DNA of 64,000 bases from Acidobacteriota bacterium (lineage in GTDB: Bacteria > Acidobacteriota > UBA6911): positions 6,814,785-6,878,784 of the forward strand of contig OY761556.1 of the NCBI GenBank assembly GCA_963664705.1, given 5' to 3'. The translations under genes were made by a program, and so were the position numbers. Of the stretch, positions 6,128-59,450 are shown piece after piece. Below the pieces are notes generated by a model. The model ran no database searches. It saw only the letters and a program-made list of their open reading frames with translations, and was not told the origin of the DNA. Position 1 is the stretch's first letter. The number at the start of each line of letters is the position of its first letter.

Positions 6128-6130
6128 TTT

Positions 6131-6164
6131 CGGATTCCAGATTTTAGATTCCGGATTCCAGATG
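6131..6164. repeat. degenerate 7-bp tandem array (GATTCCA-like), the left arm of an inverted pair
   Basis: cgGATTCCAGATTTTAGATTCCGGATTCCAGATGG begins 4 nt after the nuoH stop. Its reverse complement is repeated at 8106-8147. Confidence 0.75.
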
Positions 6165-6291
6165 GCATCTGACCTTGGGCCGGAGACCCGATAGGGAATA
6201 GACAGGGGCGAGCGCAGCGAATCCCCGGCCATTTTCTGGCGCGCCTATGATTGTGCAACATGGCCTGTTCAGGTAAAAAGGAAAAGAAAAA

Positions 6292-6364
6292 CTTGGAGTT
6301 TGGGTGTGGAAACCCGGAAGGAGCCCGGAGGGCGACCGAAGGGTTTCTACTCCCAAACTCCAAG
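6292..6364 (+). other. 73-nt extended hairpin in the 5' non-coding leader of the element
   Basis: CTTGGAGTTTGGG (6292-6304) pairs perfectly with CCCAAACTCCAAG (6352-6364). An inner stem GTGGAAACCC/GGGTTTCTAC has one G-U pair, and the apical part contains a GCCC-GGA-GGGC mini-hairpin. Confidence 0.7.
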
Positions 6365-6409
6365 CGCGGATGCACTCGGATAGCACAGTCCTACATATTG
6401 AAGGCGCCC

Positions 6410-7228
6410 ATGATCAATAACACCAACCTTTCTCACTGGAACAGACTCCAAGCGAAGAGCCTTGACGCTCAATTTGTTAATGAGATGATTACCGGCCTTA
6501 ACTGCTCTCCTTTCGAGGCGGAAGCTATTGTAGAGAAAGTTCATGAGGTTTACGTGCCGCTGTTTCAGACGGCGCAGGGACTTAAGCCGGGTCAGATTCA
6601 AGTGGCCGTGATCGATGCTTCGGTAGCGCCTAATGTGCCACTGGCAAAAGCCAAGCAGAGACTGGTAACCCTGACCCTTCATGCAGGTACCGAAGATATC
6701 GAGACTCGAAAAAGGGGATCCGTACCAGCTCTTCGTCAGAAACGATTGTGCCGCATGTGCCAAGAAGCATTTCAGCAAGGGGGATTGTTGACCTTGGAGG
6801 ATTTGGCCAATCTGTTCAATTGCGGCGTCCGCACTCTGGTGAACGACCTGGCGGCCTTGCGCAAACAGAGCATTGTGCCTCCTCTGCGCTCTACGACCAA
6901 GGATATGGGCCGCGCCATCACCCATCGCCAACTGATTATCACGCTCTGGATGCAAGGGCTTGAGTACTCCGAAATCGCCCGTAAGACCAATCACACCATC
7001 GACTCCGTAGCCAACTACGTGGATAAGTTTAAACGCTGTGCAGCCCTGTTTGTTTCTGGATTTGACGTGGATACAGTTGCTCTGATGGTAAAGCTTTCAA
7101 CGCCTCTGACCAAGGAATTTCAGCGTATCCACTCCGCTTGCCACGGGACTCCTCACCGTCTTCGGGAATTGGAAGATTTCCTCAAAAAAAACCGCATACC
7201 AAGCCTGCGCGGGAGGAAACGGTCATGA
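6410..7228 (+). CDS. element ORF-A: double helix-turn-helix protein, possibly DUF1670-like (from memory, unverified)
   Basis: ATG 6410 is preferred over the TTG 6251 start in the ORF track. HTH-like segments are LLTLEDLANLFNCGVRTLVNDLAALRKQ and GLEYSEIARKTNHTIDSVANYVDKFKR. It is a paralog of ORF-B. Confidence 0.7.
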   Translation: MINNTNLSHWNRLQAKSLDAQFVNEMITGLNCSPFEAEAIVEKVHEVYVPLFQTAQGLKPGQIQVAVIDASVAPNVPLAKAKQRLVTLTLHAGTEDIETRKRGSVPALRQKRLCRMCQEAFQQGGLLTLEDLANLFNCGVRTLVNDLAALRKQSIVPPLRSTTKDMGRAITHRQLIITLWMQGLEYSEIARKTNHTIDSVANYVDKFKRCAALFVSGFDVDTVALMVKLSTPLTKEFQRIHSACHGTPHRLRELEDFLKKNRIPSLRGRKRS

Positions 7229-8010
7229 TTGCCCAATCTGAGGCTCAAAAACAATTCGGCTCTGCGCGGAAGCGCTTCCTGCAGTCTTCTATTGAAAATT
7301 TTCTGGACCAGGAGTTCCCTCGCACCTTCGGACCAGTAATTCGCGAGAAAATGGCAGAAAAGATTGTGGCGCTTGTCGACCAACAACTACCTCCCAAGGA
7401 TCATCTGCGCCCTGGACAGTGTGTTTGGAATGCCGTATCCATTGCGACCCGGCCTGACAGCCCCAACTGTCGTCTTGTCCCCATAGTCTTGACGCTTGTG
7501 GATTCTTCGGATGCCGAGCAACTGGCTCGCGGAACACCCATGTCCAGAATCGCCCAAACGTCCATCGCTCGGATTTGCCGTGAAGCCTTTGAACAAGGAG
7601 CCTTGCTCTCGATGCGCGATATTGGCCTCTTAGTCTGGCGAGATAACGCCCACATCTCGCAGGTCCGGAAAAAGTGGGAGGCTGAACAGCAAACATCGTT
7701 GCCTCATGTCGGAACTATTCAAGATTTCGGCTCATGCATCACTCATAAGTCGGTCATTGTGCGCAAGGTTGTTTATGAAGGGAAAGATCCCCGTCGTGCT
7801 GCAGATGAAACCAAGCACTCGCAGAGAGCCGTCGATCGTTACCTAAAAGACTTTCATCGAGTAAGAACGTGCTTCGAACATATCCAAGATGTTGAATTCG
7901 TTATCAAAACAACAGGTCTATCCAGGCAGCTGGTAAACCAATATGTCAGAATCATCATGGAAAATGAGAAAACGTTTCCTAAAGAGAACTTGACAGGCAA
8001 GATTGCTTAA
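7225..8010 (+). CDS. element ORF-B: paralogous double helix-turn-helix protein
   Basis: GGAGG lies 7 nt upstream of ATG 7225, and an ATGA start/stop overlap with ORF-A suggests translational coupling. It aligns with ORF-A: RPGQ.., CREAFEQGALLSMRDIGLL vs CQEAFQQGGLLTLEDLANL; ITHKSVIV vs ITHRQLII; HSQRAVDRYLKDFHR vs HTIDSVANYVDKFKR. Confidence 0.72.
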   Translation: MIAQSEAQKQFGSARKRFLQSSIENFLDQEFPRTFGPVIREKMAEKIVALVDQQLPPKDHLRPGQCVWNAVSIATRPDSPNCRLVPIVLTLVDSSDAEQLARGTPMSRIAQTSIARICREAFEQGALLSMRDIGLLVWRDNAHISQVRKKWEAEQQTSLPHVGTIQDFGSCITHKSVIVRKVVYEGKDPRRAADETKHSQRAVDRYLKDFHRVRTCFEHIQDVEFVIKTTGLSRQLVNQYVRIIMENEKTFPKENLTGKIA

Positions 8011-8105
8011 ACTTCGGCGCTTTGCTCGCCGTTGGTTTGACTGGTTTGGGAAAAATACAATGCCAATTCCGGCAATGCCGGTAAATAGCGGATCCAGTCG
8101 TGGCA

Positions 8106-8147
8106 CATCCGAAAATCCGGAATCTGGAATCTGGAATCTGGAATTTT
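8106..8147. repeat. 7-bp tandem array (TGGAATC x3-4), the right arm inverted relative to 6131-6164
   Basis: catccgaaaatccGGAATCTGGAATCTGGAATCTGGAATttt abuts the stop codon (8146-8148) of the minus-strand acyl-ligase gene. Confidence 0.75.
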
Positions 8148-10860
8148 ACCTGACCATTTTTTCAATGGCTTCCCTGAGTCGCAGCGTATCCTGCAGATAG
8201 GGATCTGCCGCATCATCCGTCGATGGATGGATCGGTGGGCCGAAGGTAATCCTTACTTTGTGCGGCCGTATCCGCGCGCTGTCTCGCGGCCAGACATAAT
8301 GGGTGCCCTGGATCGCTGTTGGCACAAGAGGGACTGACAGTTCTCTCGACAGTATGGCCGCGCCCTTTTTGAATTCCTGCAAAGTTTCATCGTATGACCG
8401 CCCGCCTTCGGGGAAAATGCAGAGAATGCGTCCGCTTCTCAATCCATAGGCTCCTGCTTTCATGGCGCGCAGCAGATGCGCGTCCGGATCCACAGGAATG
8501 ATATTGGTGATGCGGGCCACCAGTTTCATAAGCCGGCTGGTGAACATGGCGCTATAGCCGACGAAAAACATGCTTCGAAACACCCGGAACGGGAGGACGG
8601 AGATCAATACGAATGCATCGAGGTAGCTTTGGTGATTAGGGCAAACCAGGTAAGGGCCTTTCGGCGGCAGTTGCGAAAGCCCGCGCACCTCGAGTCTCAG
8701 AAAGGTCTTGAACAGGAGGAAATAGAATAATCGTGCCAGCAGGTATTTGAACAGCGATACGAGCAGGCCGGAGGGCTGGAACGGTGCGGTCTCTGATTTG
8801 CCGAGCGAATCTTCGGACAGGATCTTTTTCCAGCTCTGTCGATCCTGGGATCCGCCGGGCGCGATGACGCCGGCCTGGCGTTCGAGTTTTGTGATCAAAT
8901 CCCTTATCGTGAGGATGTCTGCGCCAAAATCGTCCGACAGCTGAAAATTGAGTGTCTGCTCGAGACTGGCGAGGAGTTCCACTTTCTCCATGGAGTCAAA
9001 CCCCAGATCCAGTTCCAGGTTCATGTTCGGCTCGATCTGCACATCGCGATGATAGGTCTCGCGAATGCACTGAATGACTTCCTGTCCGACTGCGGAAGTC
9101 ATCCGTTCCATGTCCTGCCGGCTGGCTGATGTCGGGGGCGGGGCGATTCCCGAGGATGAAAGCTGACCACTCTCCACCAGTTTTTTCAGTTCGAGCCGTT
9201 TGATTTTTCGGGTCGTGGTGCGCAGCAGAGGATCGCTTTGAACCTGGTAGCTCATGAGGCGTTTGTATTTCGGGAGCTGATTCGACAGTCCCGCGATCTC
9301 GTCGCGAATTGCTTCCCGTGTATTGGCAATTTTCCTGGATTTCAAATAATCAAAATTGGGGACGACGATGGCGTGAAGCCGCTCTCCGCGCTCCTGGGCG
9401 CTGGATACGCCGATTACCGCAATCTCCTGAATGCAGGGGGATTGCGTATAATGCGCCTCGAGTTCGTCCGGGTAGATGTTTTTTCCGTTGGGGAGTACGA
9501 TCACTTCCTTTTTTCGGCCAGTGACGAAAATATTTCCCTTTGCGTCGATGCGTCCCAGGTCGCCAGAGTGAAACCATCCATCCTTCATTGCTTCGTTGGT
9601 AGCCGCCTGGTTTTTGTAATACCCTCGCATGACCATCGGACCGCGTATCACAATTTCGCCAGTCCCGGTTTCGTCGGGTGAGATGATTTTTACTTCGGTC
9701 CCGGGCAGTGCCGGCCCCACCGATCCCACCATGTTATTTTCCACTCGCGTGACGGCGCATGCCCCGGTGGTTTCGGTCAATCCGTAGCCCTGAAGAATTG
9801 TGAAGCCCATGTCATGGAAGTCCTGGGCAACCCGTGGGTCGAATGCGGACCCGCCGCTGACGAAAAGGCGGAGCCTGGGGCCGAAGCTGTGGTGGATTTT
9901 GGCAAACAGGAGCCGGCCCAGGTTGATTCGGAGAAAGCGCATGCTGAATCTGTTCAGGCGCAGCATGCCTTTGTAGAGTTTGCGAACCCGTGGAGGCTGT
10001 TTCGCAAGCTCCTCTTCAATCCTGTTGTGAAACAGGTAGAAGAATTGCGGGACGGTGGCCAGAATGCTGATGCCGGCTTCCTCGAGCGCCTGGAGAATCT
10101 CGGAACGCTTCAGCGTGTCCGCGAAAACAACCTGTCCGCCGTGGTAGAGCGGTACCAGCACGTTGATCACCGAGGCCAGTACGTGTTGAAGCGGGAGCAG
10201 GCAAAGCAGCGCATCGTGTTGATCCACGCGGATGGCCCGGAAGATGGACTGCAGTTCTCCCATGATGTTGGACTGCGTCAGCATCACGCCCTTCGGATTT
10301 CCGGTTGTTCCGGAGGTGTAAATAATGGTGACCGTGTCTGCGGGCTGGACTTCCGGGAGCGCGGGAGGGGCGTTGAGCCCGGATGCCCAGTCGATGAGTC
10401 CGGCGAGTTCTGATCGAGCGTCCCGGTCTCCGGCTACGGGATCAAAGGAAATAACGCGTCGCGGAGGACGGGAATCCTTCAGCGCTTCATGGAGCTTGGC
10501 CGCAAGGGATCCGCTGACAAAGACGACATGCGTTTCCGAATCATCCAGCAGACGCCTCCACTCCGCCGGGGAGATCTGGGTGTCAAGCGGAACGGCCACC
10601 ATGCCCGACAGATAGATTCCGAGGTAGGCAATTACCCATTCCGGGCGATTTTCGGACTGGATGGCCACGCGACTGCCGAGTTTCAGATCCAGTGCCAGCA
10701 ATCCCTGTGCGACCGACAGGGCTTGCCGGTGTGCTTCCTTGTAGGAGACCGTCGGATAGCCTTGTGGAGTTTTCAGCCGGAAGGCAATTCGGTCCGGAAA
10801 CTGCAGGACGATTTTCTCAAATTGCTCGTTAAAGGTTCGTGGAGCGTCTTGTGCCTTCAA
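8146..10860 (-). CDS. tri-domain fusion: AMP-dependent acyl-CoA/ACP synthetase, then a phosphopantetheine-binding carrier domain, then a PlsC-type 1-acylglycerol-3-phosphate acyltransferase
   Basis: 904 aa. AMP-binding motif IIYTSGTTGNPKGVML; carrier-domain serine motif LDLGFDSMEKVELLASLE; acyltransferase H(x)4D motif CPNHQSYLDAFV plus FPEGGRS. Confidence 0.85.
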   Translation of the reverse strand: MKAQDAPRTFNEQFEKIVLQFPDRIAFRLKTPQGYPTVSYKEAHRQALSVAQGLLALDLKLGSRVAIQSENRPEWVIAYLGIYLSGMVAVPLDTQISPAEWRRLLDDSETHVVFVSGSLAAKLHEALKDSRPPRRVISFDPVAGDRDARSELAGLIDWASGLNAPPALPEVQPADTVTIIYTSGTTGNPKGVMLTQSNIMGELQSIFRAIRVDQHDALLCLLPLQHVLASVINVLVPLYHGGQVVFADTLKRSEILQALEEAGISILATVPQFFYLFHNRIEEELAKQPPRVRKLYKGMLRLNRFSMRFLRINLGRLLFAKIHHSFGPRLRLFVSGGSAFDPRVAQDFHDMGFTILQGYGLTETTGACAVTRVENNMVGSVGPALPGTEVKIISPDETGTGEIVIRGPMVMRGYYKNQAATNEAMKDGWFHSGDLGRIDAKGNIFVTGRKKEVIVLPNGKNIYPDELEAHYTQSPCIQEIAVIGVSSAQERGERLHAIVVPNFDYLKSRKIANTREAIRDEIAGLSNQLPKYKRLMSYQVQSDPLLRTTTRKIKRLELKKLVESGQLSSSGIAPPPTSASRQDMERMTSAVGQEVIQCIRETYHRDVQIEPNMNLELDLGFDSMEKVELLASLEQTLNFQLSDDFGADILTIRDLITKLERQAGVIAPGGSQDRQSWKKILSEDSLGKSETAPFQPSGLLVSLFKYLLARLFYFLLFKTFLRLEVRGLSQLPPKGPYLVCPNHQSYLDAFVLISVLPFRVFRSMFFVGYSAMFTSRLMKLVARITNIIPVDPDAHLLRAMKAGAYGLRSGRILCIFPEGGRSYDETLQEFKKGAAILSRELSVPLVPTAIQGTHYVWPRDSARIRPHKVRITFGPPIHPSTDDAADPYLQDTLRLREAIEKMVR

Positions 10861-22832: not shown

Positions 22833-23205
22833 TGGGAGCACCGGCGCTCCAGGCTAATGTTGCATATTATTTGCCCGAGGAAGCTGGAAGCGCGATGCAT
22901 CTCAGCCCCAGCGGGGCGGTCAGAAAGTAGCCGGGGGTGAAGCGCAGCGAACCCCCGGCCAGCATGAAATTTAAAGGAGCCCCGGAGGGGGCGAAAGATA
23001 TTTCCGTTCATCCACATGATCTAAAGCTGAACATTGGAGAGGGGCTCACCGTTTCTGGCGCCCTGCCAGGGCTCTTTCTCGCGCTTATCTTTACCGGGGG
23101 TTCGCTGCGCTTCGCCCCCGGCTACGATCTTTCGGCCCTCCAGGCCTGGACAAAACCGAAGTTTGAGTTTTGAGACAGCCTCGCCGGCTCTCCCAGTGAA
23201 GAGCT
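22833..23205. repeat. MITE-like hairpin-module repeat, copy B
   Basis: Contains the TIR-like AATGTTGCATATTATTTGCCC, GTAGCCGGGGGTGAAGCGCAGCGAACCCCCGG and its inverse ACCGGGGGTTCGCTGCGCTTCGCCCCCGGCTAC, and GGGGGCGAAAGATATTTCCG. Confidence 0.7.
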
Positions 23206-47767: not shown

Positions 47768-48066
47768 ACTGGGAGCGAAAGATATTTCCGCTCCTCCCCA
47801 TGACCTAAAGTTGAACATTGGAGAGGGGTTCACCGTTTCTATCGCCCCGCCAGGGCTCTTTCCCGCGCTTATCTCTACCGGGGGTTCGCTTCGCTTCACC
47901 CCCGGCTACTTTCTGACCGCCCCTTCGGGGCTGATTTGATGGAGATTCCAAGTTCCTCGGGCAAATAGTATGCGGCATCAGCCGGGACGGCGGTGCTCCC
48001 AGCGCTCTCGTCAAGCCACAGGTTTTTCCACTCGGCTTTGCTGGTGGAGAAGCTCACTCCCGGCTG
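47768..48066. repeat. MITE-like hairpin-module repeat, copy C (left flank of element copy 2)
   Basis: Contains GGGAGCGAAAGATATTTCCG, ACCGGGGGTTCGCTTCGCTTCACCCCCGGCTAC and the TIR-like CGGGCAAATAGTATGCGGCATCAGCCGGGACGGCGG. Confidence 0.7.
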
Positions 48067-48244
48067 TTTTCTGGCGCGCCTATGATTGTGCAACATGGCC
48101 TGTTCAGGTAAAAAGGAAAAGAAAAACTTGGAGTTTGGGTGTGGAAACCCGGAAGGAGCCCGGAGGGCGACCGAAGGGTTTCTACTCCCAAACTCCAAGC
48201 GCGGATGCACTCGGATAGCACAGTCCTACATATTGAAGGCGCCC

Positions 48245-49063
48245 ATGATCAATAACACCAACCTTTCTCACTGGAACAGACTCCAAGCGAAGAGCCTTGA
48301 CGCTCAATTTGTTAATGAGATGATTACCGGCCTTAACTGCTCTCCTTTCGAGGCGGAAGCTATTGTAGAGAAAGTTCATGAGGTTTACGTGCCGCTGTTT
48401 CAGACGGCGCAGGGACTTAAGCCGGGTCAGATTCAAGTGGCCGTGATCGATGCTTCGGTAGCGCCTAATGTGCCACTGGCAAAAGCCAAGCAGAGACTGG
48501 TAACCCTGACCCTTCATGCAGGTACCGAAGATATCGAGACTCGAAAAAGGGGATCCGTACCAGCTCTTCGTCAGAAACGATTGTGCCGCATGTGCCAAGA
48601 AGCATTTCAGCAAGGGGGATTGTTGACCTTGGAGGATTTGGCCAATCTGTTCAATTGCGGCGTCCGCACTCTGGTGAACGACCTGGCGGCCTTGCGCAAA
48701 CAGAGCATTGTGCCTCCTCTGCGCTCTACGACCAAGGATATGGGCCGCGCCATCACCCATCGCCAACTGATTATCACGCTCTGGATGCAAGGGCTTGAGT
48801 ACTCCGAAATCGCCCGTAAGACCAATCACACCATCGACTCCGTAGCCAACTACGTGGATAAGTTTAAACGCTGTGCAGCCCTGTTTGTTTCTGGATTTGA
48901 CGTGGATACAGTTGCTCTGATGGTAAAGCTTTCAACGCCTCTGACCAAGGAATTTCAGCGTATCCACTCCGCTTGCCACGGGACTCCTCACCGTCTTCGG
49001 GAATTGGAAGATTTCCTCAAAAAAAACCGCATACCAAGCCTGCGCGGGAGGAAACGGTCATGA
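48245..49063 (+). CDS. element ORF-A (copy 2)
   Basis: Translation is identical to 6410-7228. Confidence 0.7.
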   Translation: MINNTNLSHWNRLQAKSLDAQFVNEMITGLNCSPFEAEAIVEKVHEVYVPLFQTAQGLKPGQIQVAVIDASVAPNVPLAKAKQRLVTLTLHAGTEDIETRKRGSVPALRQKRLCRMCQEAFQQGGLLTLEDLANLFNCGVRTLVNDLAALRKQSIVPPLRSTTKDMGRAITHRQLIITLWMQGLEYSEIARKTNHTIDSVANYVDKFKRCAALFVSGFDVDTVALMVKLSTPLTKEFQRIHSACHGTPHRLRELEDFLKKNRIPSLRGRKRS

Positions 49064-49845
49064 TTGCCCAATCTGAGGCTCAAAAACAATTCGGCTCTGC
49101 GCGGAAGCGCTTCCTGCAGTCTTCTATTGAAAATTTTCTGGACCAGGAGTTCCCTCGCACCTTCGGACCAGTAATTCGCGAGAAAATGGCAGAAAAGATT
49201 GTGGCGCTTGTCGACCAACAACTACCTCCCAAGGATCATCTGCGCCCTGGACAGTGTGTTTGGAATGCCGTATCCATTGCGACCCGGCCTGACAGCCCCA
49301 ACTGTCGTCTTGTCCCCATAGTCTTGACGCTTGTGGATTCTTCGGATGCCGAGCAACTGGCTCGCGGAACACCCATGTCCAGAATCGCCCAAACGTCCAT
49401 CGCTCGGATTTGCCGTGAAGCCTTTGAACAAGGAGCCTTGCTCTCGATGCGCGATATTGGCCTCTTAGTCTGGCGAGATAACGCCCACATCTCGCAGGTC
49501 CGGAAAAAGTGGGAGGCTGAACAGCAAACATCGTTGCCTCATGTCGGAACTATTCAAGATTTCGGCTCATGCATCACTCATAAGTCGGTCATTGTGCGCA
49601 AGGTTGTTTATGAAGGGAAAGATCCCCGTCGTGCTGCAGATGAAACCAAGCACTCGCAGAGAGCCGTCGATCGTTACCTAAAAGACTTTCATCGAGTAAG
49701 AACGTGCTTCGAACATATCCAAGATGTTGAATTCGTTATCAAAACAACAGGTCTATCCAGGCAGCTGGTAAACCAATATGTCAGAATCATCATGGAAAAT
49801 GAGAAAACGTTTCCTAAAGAGAACTTGACAGGCAAGATTGCTTAA
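49060..49845 (+). CDS. element ORF-B (copy 2)
   Basis: Translation is identical to 7225-8010. Confidence 0.72.
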   Translation: MIAQSEAQKQFGSARKRFLQSSIENFLDQEFPRTFGPVIREKMAEKIVALVDQQLPPKDHLRPGQCVWNAVSIATRPDSPNCRLVPIVLTLVDSSDAEQLARGTPMSRIAQTSIARICREAFEQGALLSMRDIGLLVWRDNAHISQVRKKWEAEQQTSLPHVGTIQDFGSCITHKSVIVRKVVYEGKDPRRAADETKHSQRAVDRYLKDFHRVRTCFEHIQDVEFVIKTTGLSRQLVNQYVRIIMENEKTFPKENLTGKIA

Positions 49846-49857
49846 ACTCCGGCGCTT

Positions 49858-50028
49858 AGTGCAGATGGAACAAAGATCCAGCGCCGGAGGCGCGAAAGAT
49901 AGTAGCCCCGGGCGAGCTTGCGAGCCCGGGGTTAAATTAGGGGTTCAAAGAGCCCTGCAAGGGCGAAAGAACGGCCATGGCAAAAAGGTAAATGGCCTTG
50001 GGAGCGACGACGGCGCCCCCAGTGGTGC
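49858..50028. repeat. MITE-like hairpin-module repeat, copy D (right flank of element copy 2)
   Basis: GGAACAAAGATCCAGCGCCGGAGGCGCGAAAGATAGTAGCC...AGCCCTGCAAGGGCGAAAGAACGG is colinear with 59280-59400. Confidence 0.7.
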
Positions 50029-55843: not shown

Positions 55844-55971
55844 GTTTTTCCTCTGCCTGACGCCCATGAAAATAGCGTCAATAGATCTTGGACTTCTTGG
55901 ATATACCGCATGGATACTGATGGCGCGAGTGTAGCATCGAAGGACCATTCGCGGGTAAGCATTTTACTGCA

Positions 55972-56210
55972 GAGCGCCGCCGTCCCGGCTAATGCTGCAT
56001 GATAATTGTTCTGAGCTCTGCGATGCCAGCGAGGCAACAGGCCCGGAGGGCCGAAAGCGAGTAGCCAGGGGTGAAGCGCAGCGAACCCCTGGGAAGATAA
56101 GTGCGAAAAAGAGCCCTGAAAGGGCGAAAGATCGGAATTCTGCCGCCCCTTCAGGGCTTGTTACTGATTTAATCCAATCCAGGGGTTCGCTACTCTCACC
56201 CCTGGCTGAT
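55972..56210. repeat. MITE-like hairpin-module repeat, copy E (left flank of the IS110-type element)
   Basis: Colinear with copy A: GAGCGCCGCCGTCCCGGCTAATGCTGCATGATAATTG..., GGCCCGGAGGGCCGAAAGCGAGTAGCCAGGGGTGAAGCGCAGCGAACCCCTGG, AGCCCTGAAAGGGCGAAAGA...CTGCCGCCCCTTCAGGGCTTG. Confidence 0.75.
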
Positions 56211-57742
56211 ATGGAGTGATCGGTCAAGTACAATCAATCCGTTCCTTGTTCGTTCATTTTGGTTTTCTTCGGTTCATAAATAAATCAGCCAGTAAAAAGA
56301 ACAGGGGATCGAGTTGGCAACAGCGACGATAATCAATCTGATATTCGCGGGTCGATAAGCACGCATGACAACTGATTCATCGGGAGCGGCCTCACTCTAC
56401 TTCCGTGGATTCTGGTTTCCCATACCAACATAGCCAGGTCGAGGTTTCTCCTTTCGAAGCCTGGAACTCGATCTCCTGTTCCGTTCACTAACCGAATGTT
56501 TCCGTTATTAATCCATTGAAGAACAAAATAGCTGCAAGAGCTGGTGCCTTATGTCATGCAACACGACCGATAGCCCAGATAAATCCTGCCAATTCTCGAC
56601 TTACCGCAACCGCGATCTTTTGTCTTTCTTTCCCTCGGTTGAGCATGCGTCGGAATTTTTGATTCAATCGCTTATCGCAACGTTGTGCAATCTCGATAAC
56701 TTCTGCCGGCAAACACTCTCGTCGTTTCTTGAGAGTTTTGCCAGCTACTGAAGAATGACGGTAGTGCCAGGCGCTTTCGATCAGCACCCTACGTAGGTGG
56801 CTGTTTCCCGTTTTGGTTATCCTTCCCCGTCTTTCAAGTTCACCTGAGCTGCTTTCCGAAGGCACCACCCCAATAGCGGCCATAAACGAAGGCGCATCAA
56901 CGAACCGTCTTAAATCGAGCGCTTCTGCGATAATCGTCATCGCCGTCAGAACCTGAACACCTTTTAGCGCCATCAAATAGCTGACTCGCTTTTGATAGTT
57001 CGGCTGTTTTGCAACTTCCTCGATTTTTTCCTGGAATTTTTTCAACCGCTCCGTCTGTTGCTCAAGCGCCTGTCGATATTCCTCCAGTACTGTTTGATCC
57101 CCATCATCCTCAAACACAAGGCTCTTAATCCATTTTAGGTGCCCAAGCGACCAGTTCTTGCCCTGCGGATATTTCAATCCACGTCGCATCAGAAACCGTG
57201 CTAATCGATGCCGTGCTCGCTGCTGGTCTTCCAATGCGTCTTCTCGCGCGCGCACTAGATCTCGCAGACTTTCCTGTTCTTTTTGCGGGATCACAATACA
57301 TGTTAGTTCTCCCGCTCGGTACAATTTGCCCAGGGCTTTCGCATCCAGCTTATCCGTTTTTACTTTTTTCCCCGCTCGTCTCGGGGTCAACGAAGGGGCC
57401 GCAACCTCACAAGAAATCCCATGTTTGGCCAAATAGCGCTGCAAATAGTATCCATTAACGCCCGCTTCGTAGACGCACCGTACATCATCTTCAAATGCCC
57501 TTAGCTTTTTCGCTAATCGCCCCAGCCCCGTACTGTCGTTTGATACAACAAGTTCTTCTCGTGGGTTACTTTCCTGCCCGCGAAAAACTGCGACGTTTAT
57601 CTTTTTTGCTGAATCATCCATCCCTACCCAAGTGATACAATCTGCCATGATCGGTCTCCTCATGTTTTATGGCTCTGCAGCTTTGTCACCACGACTTCAG
57701 CTGTAACCCACGATATTACATGCTAGAGACCGATCACTCCAT
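56211..57742 (-). mobile_element. IS110-family (IS1111-like) insertion sequence, about 1.53 kb
   Basis: Bounded by a 15-bp perfect inverted repeat, ATGGAGTGATCGGTC (56211-56225) and GACCGATCACTCCAT (57728-57742). It contains a single DEDD-type transposase gene and interrupts a MITE-like repeat. Confidence 0.8.
56554..57663 (-). CDS. IS110-family DEDD transposase/recombinase
   Basis: 369 aa. N-terminal RuvC-like region (WVGMDDSAKKINVAVF...VYEAGVNGY...VKTDKLDAKAL) and a C-terminal Transposase_20-type region (LKGVQVLTAMTIIAEA..RF...SFMAAIGVVPSESSSGE..RRGRITKTGNSHLRRVLIESAW). Confidence 0.9.
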   Translation of the reverse strand: MRRPIMADCITWVGMDDSAKKINVAVFRGQESNPREELVVSNDSTGLGRLAKKLRAFEDDVRCVYEAGVNGYYLQRYLAKHGISCEVAAPSLTPRRAGKKVKTDKLDAKALGKLYRAGELTCIVIPQKEQESLRDLVRAREDALEDQQRARHRLARFLMRRGLKYPQGKNWSLGHLKWIKSLVFEDDGDQTVLEEYRQALEQQTERLKKFQEKIEEVAKQPNYQKRVSYLMALKGVQVLTAMTIIAEALDLRRFVDAPSFMAAIGVVPSESSSGELERRGRITKTGNSHLRRVLIESAWHYRHSSVAGKTLKKRRECLPAEVIEIAQRCDKRLNQKFRRMLNRGKERQKIAVAVSRELAGFIWAIGRVA

Positions 57743-57845
57743 TATGTCTACTTGCTTTCGGCCCTCCGGGCCTGTTGCTCCACTCGCGTCGCAAGGCTCA
57801 GAACAATTCATTGGCGGCATTAACCGTCCCGGTGGGCACCCGCGA
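57743..57845. repeat. MITE-like hairpin-module repeat, copy F (right flank of the IS110-type element, inverted orientation)
   Basis: Its reverse complement reads ...CCGGGACGGTTAATGCCGCCAATGAATTGTTCTGAGCC...CAACAGGCCCGGAGGGCCGAAAGCAAGTAG, which matches the start of copies A and E. Confidence 0.7.
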
Positions 57846-59086: not shown

Positions 59087-59450
59087 CCTATGCGGCAACC
59101 AGAAGGGGCAAGTGAATTTGGGAGCGCTGCGCTGTGGAAGCGGCTGCGCTCTTGCCGGCGTCTTGCCCGCTTTTTTTTCGGCGTTTTTCTTTCGGTCCTT
59201 CAGGGCTCTTTGAGCTCCGAATGCAACCCCGGGCTCACAAGCTCGCCCAGGGCTGCTAGCTTTTGCGCCTTCGGCGCTTGGTTTAGGTGGAACAAAAATC
59301 CAGGCCCGGAGGGCCGAAAGCAAGTAGCCAGGGGTGAGCGGAGCGAACCCCTGGTAGAATAGTTGGAAAAACAGGAGCCCTGAAGGGGCGAAAGAACGGC
59401 AATTGCAAAAAAGTAAATTGCATTGTGCCAGACGGCTGCGCTCCCAGTGC
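59087..59450. repeat. MITE-like hairpin-module repeat, copy G (the uninterrupted 'empty-site' homolog of the copy-2 insertion locus)
   Basis: Contains the intact hairpin GCGCC-TTC-GGCGC (59265-59277), followed by GGAACAAAAATCCAGGCCCGGAGGGCCGAAAGCAAGTAGCCAGGGGTGAGCGGAGCGAACCCCTGG and AGCCCTGAAGGGGCGAAAGAACGG. Confidence 0.75.

Follow-up and report, generated by a model that had tools for sequence, protein, structure and literature searches.

A hairpin-targeted, apparently undescribed insertion sequence with two DUF1670 genes in an Acidobacteriota genome

Introduction

To our knowledge, the well-understood insertion sequences of prokaryotes are all moved by a handful of enzyme classes. A stretch of 64,000 nt from an Acidobacteriota genome (contig OY761556.1, positions 6,814,785 to 6,878,784; hereafter the window, meaning this whole stretch, within which all coordinates are numbered) raises the question of how an element with none of the familiar enzymes reached its sites. 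The window holds two copies of this element, each of which splits a small DNA hairpin at the same position and carries two genes, ORF1 and ORF2, for proteins of the DUF1670 family. The element family appears to be undescribed and, by its proteins, unrelated to known transposase types. From comparison with relatives in other genomes and metagenomes, we consider it likely that this is an autonomous insertion sequence, composed of 23-bp inverted repeats, a structured leader and two coupled DUF1670 paralogues, which moves by a conservative circle-to-hairpin mechanism. Functionally it comes closest to the IS110/IS1111 family, behaving like that family with unrelated proteins.

Two identical copies interrupt the same hairpin

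The two copies, the arms of the hairpins that they split and a paralogous empty site lie in the window as follows.

6246-8012, plus strand: element copy 1, 1767 nt, with a nuoH-like gene on one side and AMP-binding/acyltransferase genes on the other
48081-49847, plus strand: element copy 2, 1767 nt, TATGATTG...GCTTAAAC
6241-6245 (copy 1) and 48076-48080 (copy 2), plus strand: 5' arm of the target hairpin, GCGCC
8013-8020, plus strand: loop and 3' arm at copy 1, TTCGGCGC (TTC-GGCGC)
49848-49855, plus strand: loop and 3' arm at copy 2, TCCGGCGC (TCC-GGCGC)
59265-59277, plus strand: uninterrupted paralogous hairpin GCGCC-TTC-GGCGC, which folds with a 5-bp stem and a 3-nt loop and, within the Acido-Lenti-1-like unit 59227-59278, forms the 3' stem-loop

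The copies are gaplessly identical (100%) over 6232-8013 and 48067-49848. An earlier note on this DNA had proposed a mobile core of about 6246-8012 inserted at one position of a GCGCC-TTC-GGCGC hairpin in both copies, and closer analysis bears this out: the ends TATGATTG...TTAAAC, set by comparison with relatives of 49-97% protein identity, are kept in those relatives, and the junctions are the same at 6246-8012 and 48081-49847, although the sequence farther out is not the same at the two copies. The intact homologous site that the note had pointed out at 59265-59277 also holds up. When the element is removed, the flanks of copy 2 are colinear over ~190 nt with 59240-59420, where the hairpin is unbroken. 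The 14 nt upstream that are common to both copies (TTTTCTGGCGCGCC) comprise the Acido-Lenti-1 linker plus the 5' arm; we assign them to the target repeat and not to the element. Other insertions have a similar, non-identical linker. Each element end motif occurs exactly twice in the window, compared with 0.03 and 0.00 expected occurrences.

One insertion rule holds across many organisms

Homologues are numerous in a large protein collection (798 for ORF2 and 878 for ORF1), and none has a functional name. We retrieved 94 loci, of which 10 come from genomes, 80 from metagenomes and 4 from further contigs. About 90 of the genome and metagenome contigs yielded 50 distinct insertion sites, and 51 distinct elements were compared. 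Complete elements measure 1652-1928 nt and have conserved ends. By bin label the hosts comprise Acidobacteriota, Syntrophobacteraceae, Thiobacillaceae, Acidimicrobiia, termite-gut bacteria and one Methanomicrobiales bin; across them the gene content is always the same two genes and nothing else, and on long contigs the ORF pair stands alone among housekeeping genes. For the window itself, the similarity of NuoH (83-85% identity to MAG proteins labelled Acidobacteria) marks the host as an acidobacterium. No homologues were found in plasmid and phage collections. A contig end lies no more than 130 nt from the element end at 21 of 60 left ends and 24 of 81 right ends, a pattern typical of collapsed repeats. 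Judged from its flanking sequences, the element is present at many unrelated sites in many organisms.

Two of the surveyed elements, both of 1928 nt (L002 and L049), have ~160 nt extra downstream of ORF2, ahead of the right inverted repeat. In L002 (JALHCK010000053.1), the complete element makes up the whole 1.9-kb contig, which is assigned to the Methanomicrobiales bin and is either a mis-binned repeat contig or a sign of an archaeal host.

The surveyed sites follow a common geometry. At 34 of the 50 distinct sites, a perfect stem of at least 5 bp encloses a 3-nt loop whose first base directly follows the junction, and most of the remaining sites deviate only by a C·A at the loop-closing position. 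A natural uninterrupted hairpin with such a C·A closing pair exists, for example at 59377-59389 on the minus strand. A position weight matrix gives the target consensus C-G-C-C-C-C | T-N-C-R-G-G-G-C-T. Watson-Crick pairs occur between positions -1/+4, -2/+5, -3/+6, -4/+7 and -5/+8 at 37, 48, 45, 47 and 46 of the 50 sites respectively, and pairing is random from -6/+9 outward. Minority arm pairs compensate (GC, TA and AT variants), as in GCGTCCC|TACGGGACGC, CCCCACCC|TACGGGTGGGG, CTTCCCC|TTTGGGGAAG, CAGCTCT|TGCAGAGCTG and CCCCTCC|GTTGGAGGGG. Overall, an insertion point between the 5' arm and the loop, which had been suggested from the window copies, applies to ~90% of the 50 distinct sites. The suggested fixed orientation relative to the hairpin extends to the surveyed insertion sites of other genomes and metagenomes, in which the element always points the same way with respect to the asymmetric loop, which has T at +1 and C at +3. 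The same rule holds for L009, a 49%-identical relative in an AT-rich genome (CGACCCC|TCTGGGGTCG).

Is the second arm part of what is recognised? The left half-site has 203 matches in the window, and a complementary arm follows in only 10 of these (5%), compared with ~90% of the 50 independent insertion sites. A second arm that is common at insertions and rare in the background is one that is required, and not a by-product.

The junctions share a single base

The absence of a target-site duplication, as first described for the window copies, holds for duplications of 2 nt or more, none of which occurs at the junctions. It does not hold for one nucleotide that is common to the left flank and the right end: the last left-flank base is identical to the last element base at 48 of 48 sites (42 C/C, 5 T/T, 1 G/G and 0 mixed). 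In a mutual-information analysis of 18 flank positions against every left- and right-end column over these 48 sites, this terminal base was the sole element position that covaries with the target, and among the leader and right-end columns there was no covarying guide column for it. The state of the shared base switches at least 5 times on a neighbour-joining tree, and some clades are uniformly T. This base would be either a 1-bp duplication or a 1-nt core needed in both donor and target. The base after the right end is T at 67 of 75 sites, and most junctions read C-T on both sides.

The left junction always retains the TAT of the element, and the right junction retains the loop of the target. 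A staggered double-strand exchange over a 3-nt spacer predicts mixed products and none were seen, which favours an exchange restricted to the top strand, or a single-strand route. The GC skew of the window is too flat to be used for assessing a replication-related strand bias of the copies.

One copy, in a 244-kb contig (L091:6760-6800, L092:3940-3970), lacks the last 5 nt of the right end and looks immobilised. This right-end-deleted copy reads ...ATTGCC|TTCGGGGC, and L093 and L094 read ...ATTGCCTAAAC|TTCGGGGC.

Joined element ends would rebuild a promoter

Within the element, the following features are found.

48084-48106 (copy 1: 6249-6271), plus strand: left inverted repeat, element nt 4-26
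49825-49847 (copy 1: 7990-8012), plus strand: right inverted repeat, the last 23 nt, with the -35 hexamer TTGACA at 49825-49830
48081-48086, plus strand: TATGAT, the -10 hexamer of the joined-end promoter
48127-48199 (copy 1: 6292-6364), plus strand: leader hairpin, with an invariant apical module at 48151-48177 and a mini-hairpin GCCC-GGA-GGGC at 48158-48168
48245-49063 (copy 1: 6410-7228), plus strand: ORF1, 272 aa, DUF1670
49060-49845 (copy 1: 7225-8010), plus strand: ORF2, 261 aa, DUF1670 paralogue

The 23-bp inverted repeats are imperfect, with ~80% of positions matched in relatives and 15 of 23 in the window copy, and the reverse complement of the left end fits the right-end pattern at no more than 4 substitutions (14 loci). 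When joined, the ends would form TTGACA-N17-TATGAT, an 11/12 match to a sigma-70 promoter. Among the 51 distinct elements, TTGACA is kept in 44, the N17 spacing in 48 and TATGAT in 48, and these are the best-conserved non-coding features; no promoter-like site was found upstream of ORF1 in the integrated copy. Since a sigma-70 promoter rebuilt by joined ends is a classical signature of a circular intermediate, we infer that such an intermediate exists. Its predicted junction would read ...TTGCTTAAAC|TATGATTG..., with a 17-nt promoter spacer. This right-end/left-end junction would have the layout arm-TAT-arm, which is that of the target (arm-TNC-arm), with a C|T point in both. In most relatives the left tip TGATTGTGCAA is complementary to TTGCACAATCA, located just upstream of the ORF1 ribosome-binding site, and pairing between them may silence read-through transcripts.

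ORF1 and ORF2 are coupled DUF1670 paralogues

Both proteins match Pfam PF07900 well above its cut-off of 25 (ORF1: E = 4e-40, 137.8 bits; ORF2: E = 1e-43, 149.5 bits), and the other Pfam signals in them are weak helix-turn-helix hits. ORF1 and ORF2 are paralogous (27% identical), and the overlap of the ORF1 stop with the ORF2 start (ATGA) is kept in 45 of the 51 elements. More distant DUF1670 relatives (P0292, P0295, P0312, P0307, P0338 and P0285) are single polypeptides with 2 units (~540 aa) or 3 recognisable units (930-950 aa), one of the multi-unit relatives being fused to a CHC2 DnaG-type zinc ribbon. Taken together, the paralogy, the ATGA coupling and the fused multi-unit relatives point to ORF1 and ORF2 acting as a hetero-oligomer.

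The remark that the element lacks the enzymes of IS110/IS1111 and IS200/IS605 elements is borne out by our searches, as neither Pfam nor NCBIfam gave such a match in ORF1 or ORF2. There was no hit to PF01548, PF02371 or NF033542, and NCBIfam returned nothing meaningful for either protein, while the positive control at 56557-57663 reached NF033542 at 6.8e-62. This control is an IS110-family transposase gene on the minus strand of the window, in a separate element with unrelated ends. The HUH/Y1 transposase TnpA (PF01797) gave no Pfam or NCBIfam hit either, and the structural models contain no HUH-type beta-sheet. PHROGs and PADLOC gave only DUF1670 or weak helix-turn-helix hits, and profile searches of PDB yielded no relative beyond a likeness of residues 183-242 to tandem helix-turn-helix repeats.

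AlphaFold2 models are helical plus one beta-hairpin, and their Foldseek matches are all helix-turn-helix proteins. The model of ORF2 has a pLDDT of 74 and a pTM of 0.39, with a best Foldseek E = 0.18 against PDB; that of ORF1 has a pLDDT of 79 and a pTM of 0.50, with a best E = 0.27 against PDB and E = 0.003 against BFVD, the latter at a TM below 0.3. Signatures of tyrosine, serine, DDE, DEDD or HUH enzymes were absent from both proteins (Pfam, NCBIfam, PDB profiles and Foldseek at E = 0.001), though models of this moderate quality could miss a strongly diverged fold.

Across 84 diverse DUF1670 proteins, H174 and Y206 are invariant and R116, Q124, P160, D167, G169, K175, H198 and Y240 are at least 90% conserved (ORF2 numbering). 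A conserved motif, LPxRGxxHDxGxxxTHK, falls outside the helix-turn-helix cores, in a loop that is modelled with low confidence and connects two such units; this loop is the best candidate for an active site. We also considered the H-x24-H-x8-Y spacing as a tyrosine-recombinase 'box II' and rejected it: the residues in question match ordinary helix-turn-helix repeats, and the fold searches turned up no integrase. A search of a library of 8 million papers returned none mentioning DUF1670, PF07900 or IPR012873, and none of our sources names these DUF1670 proteins as transposases.

Proteins that look like stacks of helix-turn-helix units without a recognisable active site lend themselves to an alternative, in which the element is catalytically non-autonomous. 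In this case DUF1670 would only bind DNA, for targeting, assembly or regulation, and a host enzyme or a transposase supplied in trans would do the chemistry. Such a helper could be an Xer-type or other recombinase, a topoisomerase, a hairpin nuclease such as SbcCD, a HUH transposase associated with repetitive extragenic palindromic (REP) sequences, or the IS110-family recombinase 6.7 kb away, among others. Integrative elements that use host XerCD through a small helix-turn-helix activator are known (TLC-phi XafT), a precedent that we count in favour of such a helper, as we do the fact that the IS110-family transposase in the same window also targets Acido-Lenti-1 repeats. We nevertheless regard this alternative as unlikely. 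The same two genes, and nothing else, accompany the element in hosts that are very different by bin label; the ends of the IS110 element (ACATAATGG...CCATATCAG, core AG) are unlike those of the DUF1670 element; the leader shows no guide-like covariation; and the conserved LPxRGxxHDxGxxxTHK loop provides a possible active site outside the helix-turn-helix cores.

The leader is structured and does not follow the target

The leader stem is hypervariable yet paired: 96.3% of cells in the alignment are paired, compared with 71% in shuffles and 33-50% with slid partners. Double-change cells number 232, compared with 53 in shuffles, and 0 of 500 shuffles reach as high a value. The leader tip, (C/T)GGAAGGAGCCCGNAGGGCGAC(T/C)GGAAGG, is almost invariant and contains a mini-hairpin GCCC-GNA-GGGC; on the opposite strand it resembles the target site (TCGCCC-TNC-GGGCTC). 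Folding z-scores computed as DNA are -6.1 for the plus strand and -5.9 for the minus strand, and mismatches of the G·U type (9) and the A·C type (13) give no preference to a plus-strand RNA as against a hairpin of DNA. With its own covariance model, the leader scores 79.8 bits and does so only at the two copies in the window, a 21.6-bit hit at 984-1087 being an unrelated long hairpin. No Rfam match was found for the leader. The tip is missing from several relatives (L003/L051, L009, L090, L047 and L058), of which at least L009 and L090 still sit in hairpins, showing that the tip is not needed for hairpin targeting. L003:2063-3787 and L051:1563-3287 are the same variant in two assemblies, in which a TTCC loop replaces the tip and the right flank (TTGGTATACC) does not complete a hairpin.

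Could this leader be a guide resembling the bridge RNA of IS110/IS621, which pairs with both target and donor? It is placed like a bridge RNA, after the junction promoter and before the ORFs, its structure is long and conserved, and the apical mini-hairpin GCCC-GNA-GGGC is complementary to the generic target GCCC-TNC-GGGC. RNA-guided targeting is nonetheless very improbable. The conserved part of the leader is invariant while the targets vary (GCGCC, GTCCC, CACCC, GCTCT, CCTCC and others), and the loop of the mini-hairpin does not follow the loop of the target. Save for the terminal base, no leader or right-end column covaries with the target, the next-best normalised mutual information being 0.54 with no clean mapping. 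L009 and L090, which lack the apical module, are found in hairpins all the same, and G-U mismatches are no commoner than A-C ones. Inspection by eye of the invariant leader loop sequences showed no complementarity to the donor junction.

The interrupted hairpin probably belongs to a repeat catalogued as Acido-Lenti-1

From its sequence and architecture, the interrupted hairpin appears to be the 3' stem-loop of the Acido-Lenti-1 repeat (Rfam RF01687), which is one favoured target of the element family. In RF01687 a linker connects a long 5' hairpin to a 3' hairpin with a 5-bp stem and a 3-nt loop, and the element enters at the 5' side of the 3' hairpin loop. Scored with the covariance model, whose gathering score is 37 bits, the window contains the following units, a single one of which reaches that score.

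49880-49931, minus strand: Acido-Lenti-1 unit, 44.8 bits (above 37), immediately downstream of copy 2 and in the repeat cluster hit by it
47878-47932, plus strand: Acido-Lenti-1-like unit, 32.8 bits (below 37), a full-length model match
59227-59278, plus strand: Acido-Lenti-1-like unit that contains the empty site, 30.5 bits (below 37), a full-length model match

The two-hairpin architecture is found at the targets of both window copies and of many metagenomic copies. The Acido-Lenti-1 motif has been put forward as a small RNA; in the present case its behaviour is that of a REP-like DNA repeat with multiple copies. GC-rich hairpins of the target type number 16 per strand in the window, compared with ~4.5 for the two strands combined in shuffled sequence. 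The short repeats are REP-like hairpins of modular make-up, grouped in intergenic clusters. These clusters lie at 689-960, 22900-23150, 47771-47935, 49850-50025, 55971-56160 and 59175-59450. They hold Acido-Lenti-1 units in both orientations, some with a shared long hairpin, as well as a module GAGCCCTGNAAGGGCGAAAGAACGG, which resembles the invariant leader tip of the element, and a module ATGCGGCATnAGCCGGGACGGCGG.

The repeats had previously been labelled a miniature inverted-repeat transposable element (MITE), a name that we do not retain. Such elements carry the terminal repeats of an autonomous relative, and neither end of the DUF1670 element is found in the window beyond its two full copies, where internal-deletion derivatives would also have been expected to leave such ends. 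A related view is that the hairpin arms are themselves part of the element, being its terminal inverted repeats or an inverted duplication generated during insertion, and that the short repeats are deletion derivatives, i.e. true MITEs. The flanking arms are always complementary and covarying, as terminal repeats would be, and the 14 nt upstream are common to both window copies. These features carry little weight against an unbroken hairpin in a colinear paralogous repeat, a hairpin that belongs to an independently defined family (RF01687, with 89 members; PMC2864571 supplement), and element end sequences that occur nowhere else in the window. In addition, the promoter spacing puts the junction exactly at TAAAC|TATGAT, and sequence past the 5-bp arms is unrelated between sites. 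The empty site, the independent repeat family and the restriction of element ends to full copies effectively refute this view, which we consider hardly credible. Weaker still is the notion that no transposon exists and that a repeat-rich region with a two-gene regulatory operon underwent segmental duplication or gene conversion: only two copies lie in the window, both within clusters of the same repeats, but the multi-site survey refutes this through 50 distinct flanking contexts in other organisms with identical end points, wider flanks that differ between copies 1 and 2, and contigs that break at the element ends as collapsed repeats do.

A proposed circle-to-hairpin mechanism

The mechanism that we propose for an autonomous DUF1670 element builds on what can be read directly from the aligned loci, namely the geometry and polarity of the site, insertion without duplication, the layout of the promoter, the structure of the leader and the coupling of the two genes. 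The element would be excised as a circle, or pass through a state with abutted ends, and the junction promoter would then turn on ORF1 and ORF2, so that only the excised form expresses them. Assembled as a hetero-oligomer, the two proteins would bind both inverted repeats, which present arm-TAT-arm in the junction, and the target hairpin, which presents arm-TNC-arm. The target would be read mainly as shape, from an extruded or single-stranded hairpin, plus the bases C-2/G+5 and T+1. Top strands would be swapped at C|T in both partners, with the second strand handled by replication or by a second exchange. The overall reaction would thus be conservative and site-specific, IS110-like or integron-like, and would differ from cut-and-paste transposition with staggered cuts. 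The invariant leader tip is probably a protein-binding site for regulation or assembly, and not a guide.

That the DUF1670 proteins themselves break and join DNA is a proposition to which we give roughly even chances. We more tentatively suggest, at somewhat less than even, that the DUF1670 pair represents a recombinase/transposase class apart from the DDE, DEDD, HUH, serine and tyrosine enzymes, which would read a 5-bp/3-nt hairpin shape and swap a single strand at the boundary of the 5' arm and the loop, and that the Acido-Lenti-1 'RNA' is primarily a DNA landing site and not a small-RNA gene.

Several observations weigh against this proposal. No catalytic fold or motif was found in ORF1 or ORF2, using AlphaFold2 models of moderate quality and Foldseek against PDB and BFVD, and several of the residues conserved across the family, among them the invariant Y206 and the near-invariant H198, occupy ordinary helix-turn-helix positions. 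The abutted right-end/left-end junction, whether in a circle or in a tandem, is absent from the 90 contigs, so that the circle is drawn from promoter geometry. A dimeric protein that reads a duplex palindrome is a possible competing account of target recognition, since natural palindromes covary by themselves. Finally, ~10% of the sites are without a proper hairpin (L003/L051, L006, L026, L027 and L071). In L071 the two flanks come from different hairpin types, which fits recombination between two copies. The few non-hairpin sites look like secondary rearrangements, and they do not amount to the unrelated targets or duplications that would have spoken against hairpin-directed insertion.

The element is compact and abundant in soils, wetlands, sediments, digesters and termite guts. 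If DUF1670 proteins were indeed recombinases, they would represent a new DNA-rearranging chemistry and a categorically new enzyme class with a very small, structure-defined target, which would be important to the biology of mobile DNA and might also serve as a tool. DUF1670 gains a testable function, a catalogued 'small RNA' motif is recast as a transposon landing pad, and the finding of the element explains why these repeats break metagenome assemblies.

Relationship to known systems

The systems that we compared from the IS110/IS1111 family were IS621, ISPpu9, ISPpu10 and the window element at 56206-57747. Like these, the DUF1670 element inserts in fixed orientation into REP-like palindromic repeats, with no duplication beyond a 1-2-nt core common to both junctions (here mostly C then T; CT in IS621). 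Its inverted repeats are not exactly terminal, and a long structured leader precedes its genes, as one precedes the recombinase gene in those elements. In IS110 elements, circle formation reconstitutes a sigma-70 promoter where the ends meet (PMC11208160), and the ends of the DUF1670 element have the same geometry. ISPpu10 has been reported to need a stem-loop in its target DNA (bioRxiv 10.64898/2026.03.19.712850). In contrast, the DUF1670 element has no DEDD/RuvC-like or Tnp domain and carries two helix-turn-helix-rich paralogues in place of one recombinase, and its leader does not covary with the target, which argues that targeting is not RNA-programmed. It thus shares the short core and the junction promoter with IS110/IS1111 elements and lacks both features that define them, the DEDD/Tnp recombinase and the guide RNA.

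The IS200/IS605 family (IS608) and the REP-associated tyrosine transposases (RAYTs) resemble the element in their strand- and orientation-specific, duplication-free insertion 3' of a short conserved sequence and in their dependence on DNA hairpins. A single-strand or top-strand-only reaction would be a further likeness, and is likely here given that the left junction holds the donor TAT and the right junction the target loop. On the other hand, the DUF1670 element has no HUH/Y1 transposase, TnpB or omega RNA. In IS608 the hairpins are subterminal in the element and the target is a bare tetranucleotide, whereas the DUF1670 element has a hairpin as its target and is bounded by ordinary inverted repeats. 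Its sole strong hairpin starts 46 nt inside the left end and has no right-end counterpart.

Integrons (attC x attI, IntI) and CTX-phi/XerCD also use a hairpin of fixed shape and free arm sequence as a recombination site, exchange one strand, resolve the product by replication and leave no duplication. These reactions are carried out by tyrosine recombinases, of which neither sequence nor fold was detected in ORF1 or ORF2, and the folded partner is the mobile DNA there and the chromosomal target here.

An IS110-family element and a palindrome in the same window

Acido-Lenti-1 repeats in the window have been entered by a second, unrelated insertion sequence.

56206-57747, minus strand: IS110-family element, 1542 bp, whose ORF at 56557-57663 matches PF01548 and PF02371 in addition to NF033542 (6.8e-62)

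This element occupies a further Acido-Lenti-1 unit, where it separates the linker ...GCAAGTAG from the 5' hairpin CCAGGGG..., so that two unrelated insertion sequences in the window land in these repeats. Its ends read ACATAATGG...CCATATCAG, with the core AG common to both junctions, and they are unrelated to the ends of the DUF1670 element. It has subterminal inverted repeats (ATGGAGTGATCGGTC / GACCGATCACTCCAT), and its joined ends form a promoter of their own, TTGACC-N17-CATAAT.

Around copy 1 of the DUF1670 element, runs of the repeats GGATTCCAGATT / AATCTGGAATCC at 6129-6166 and 8110-8150 are inverted with respect to each other and form a large potential palindrome.

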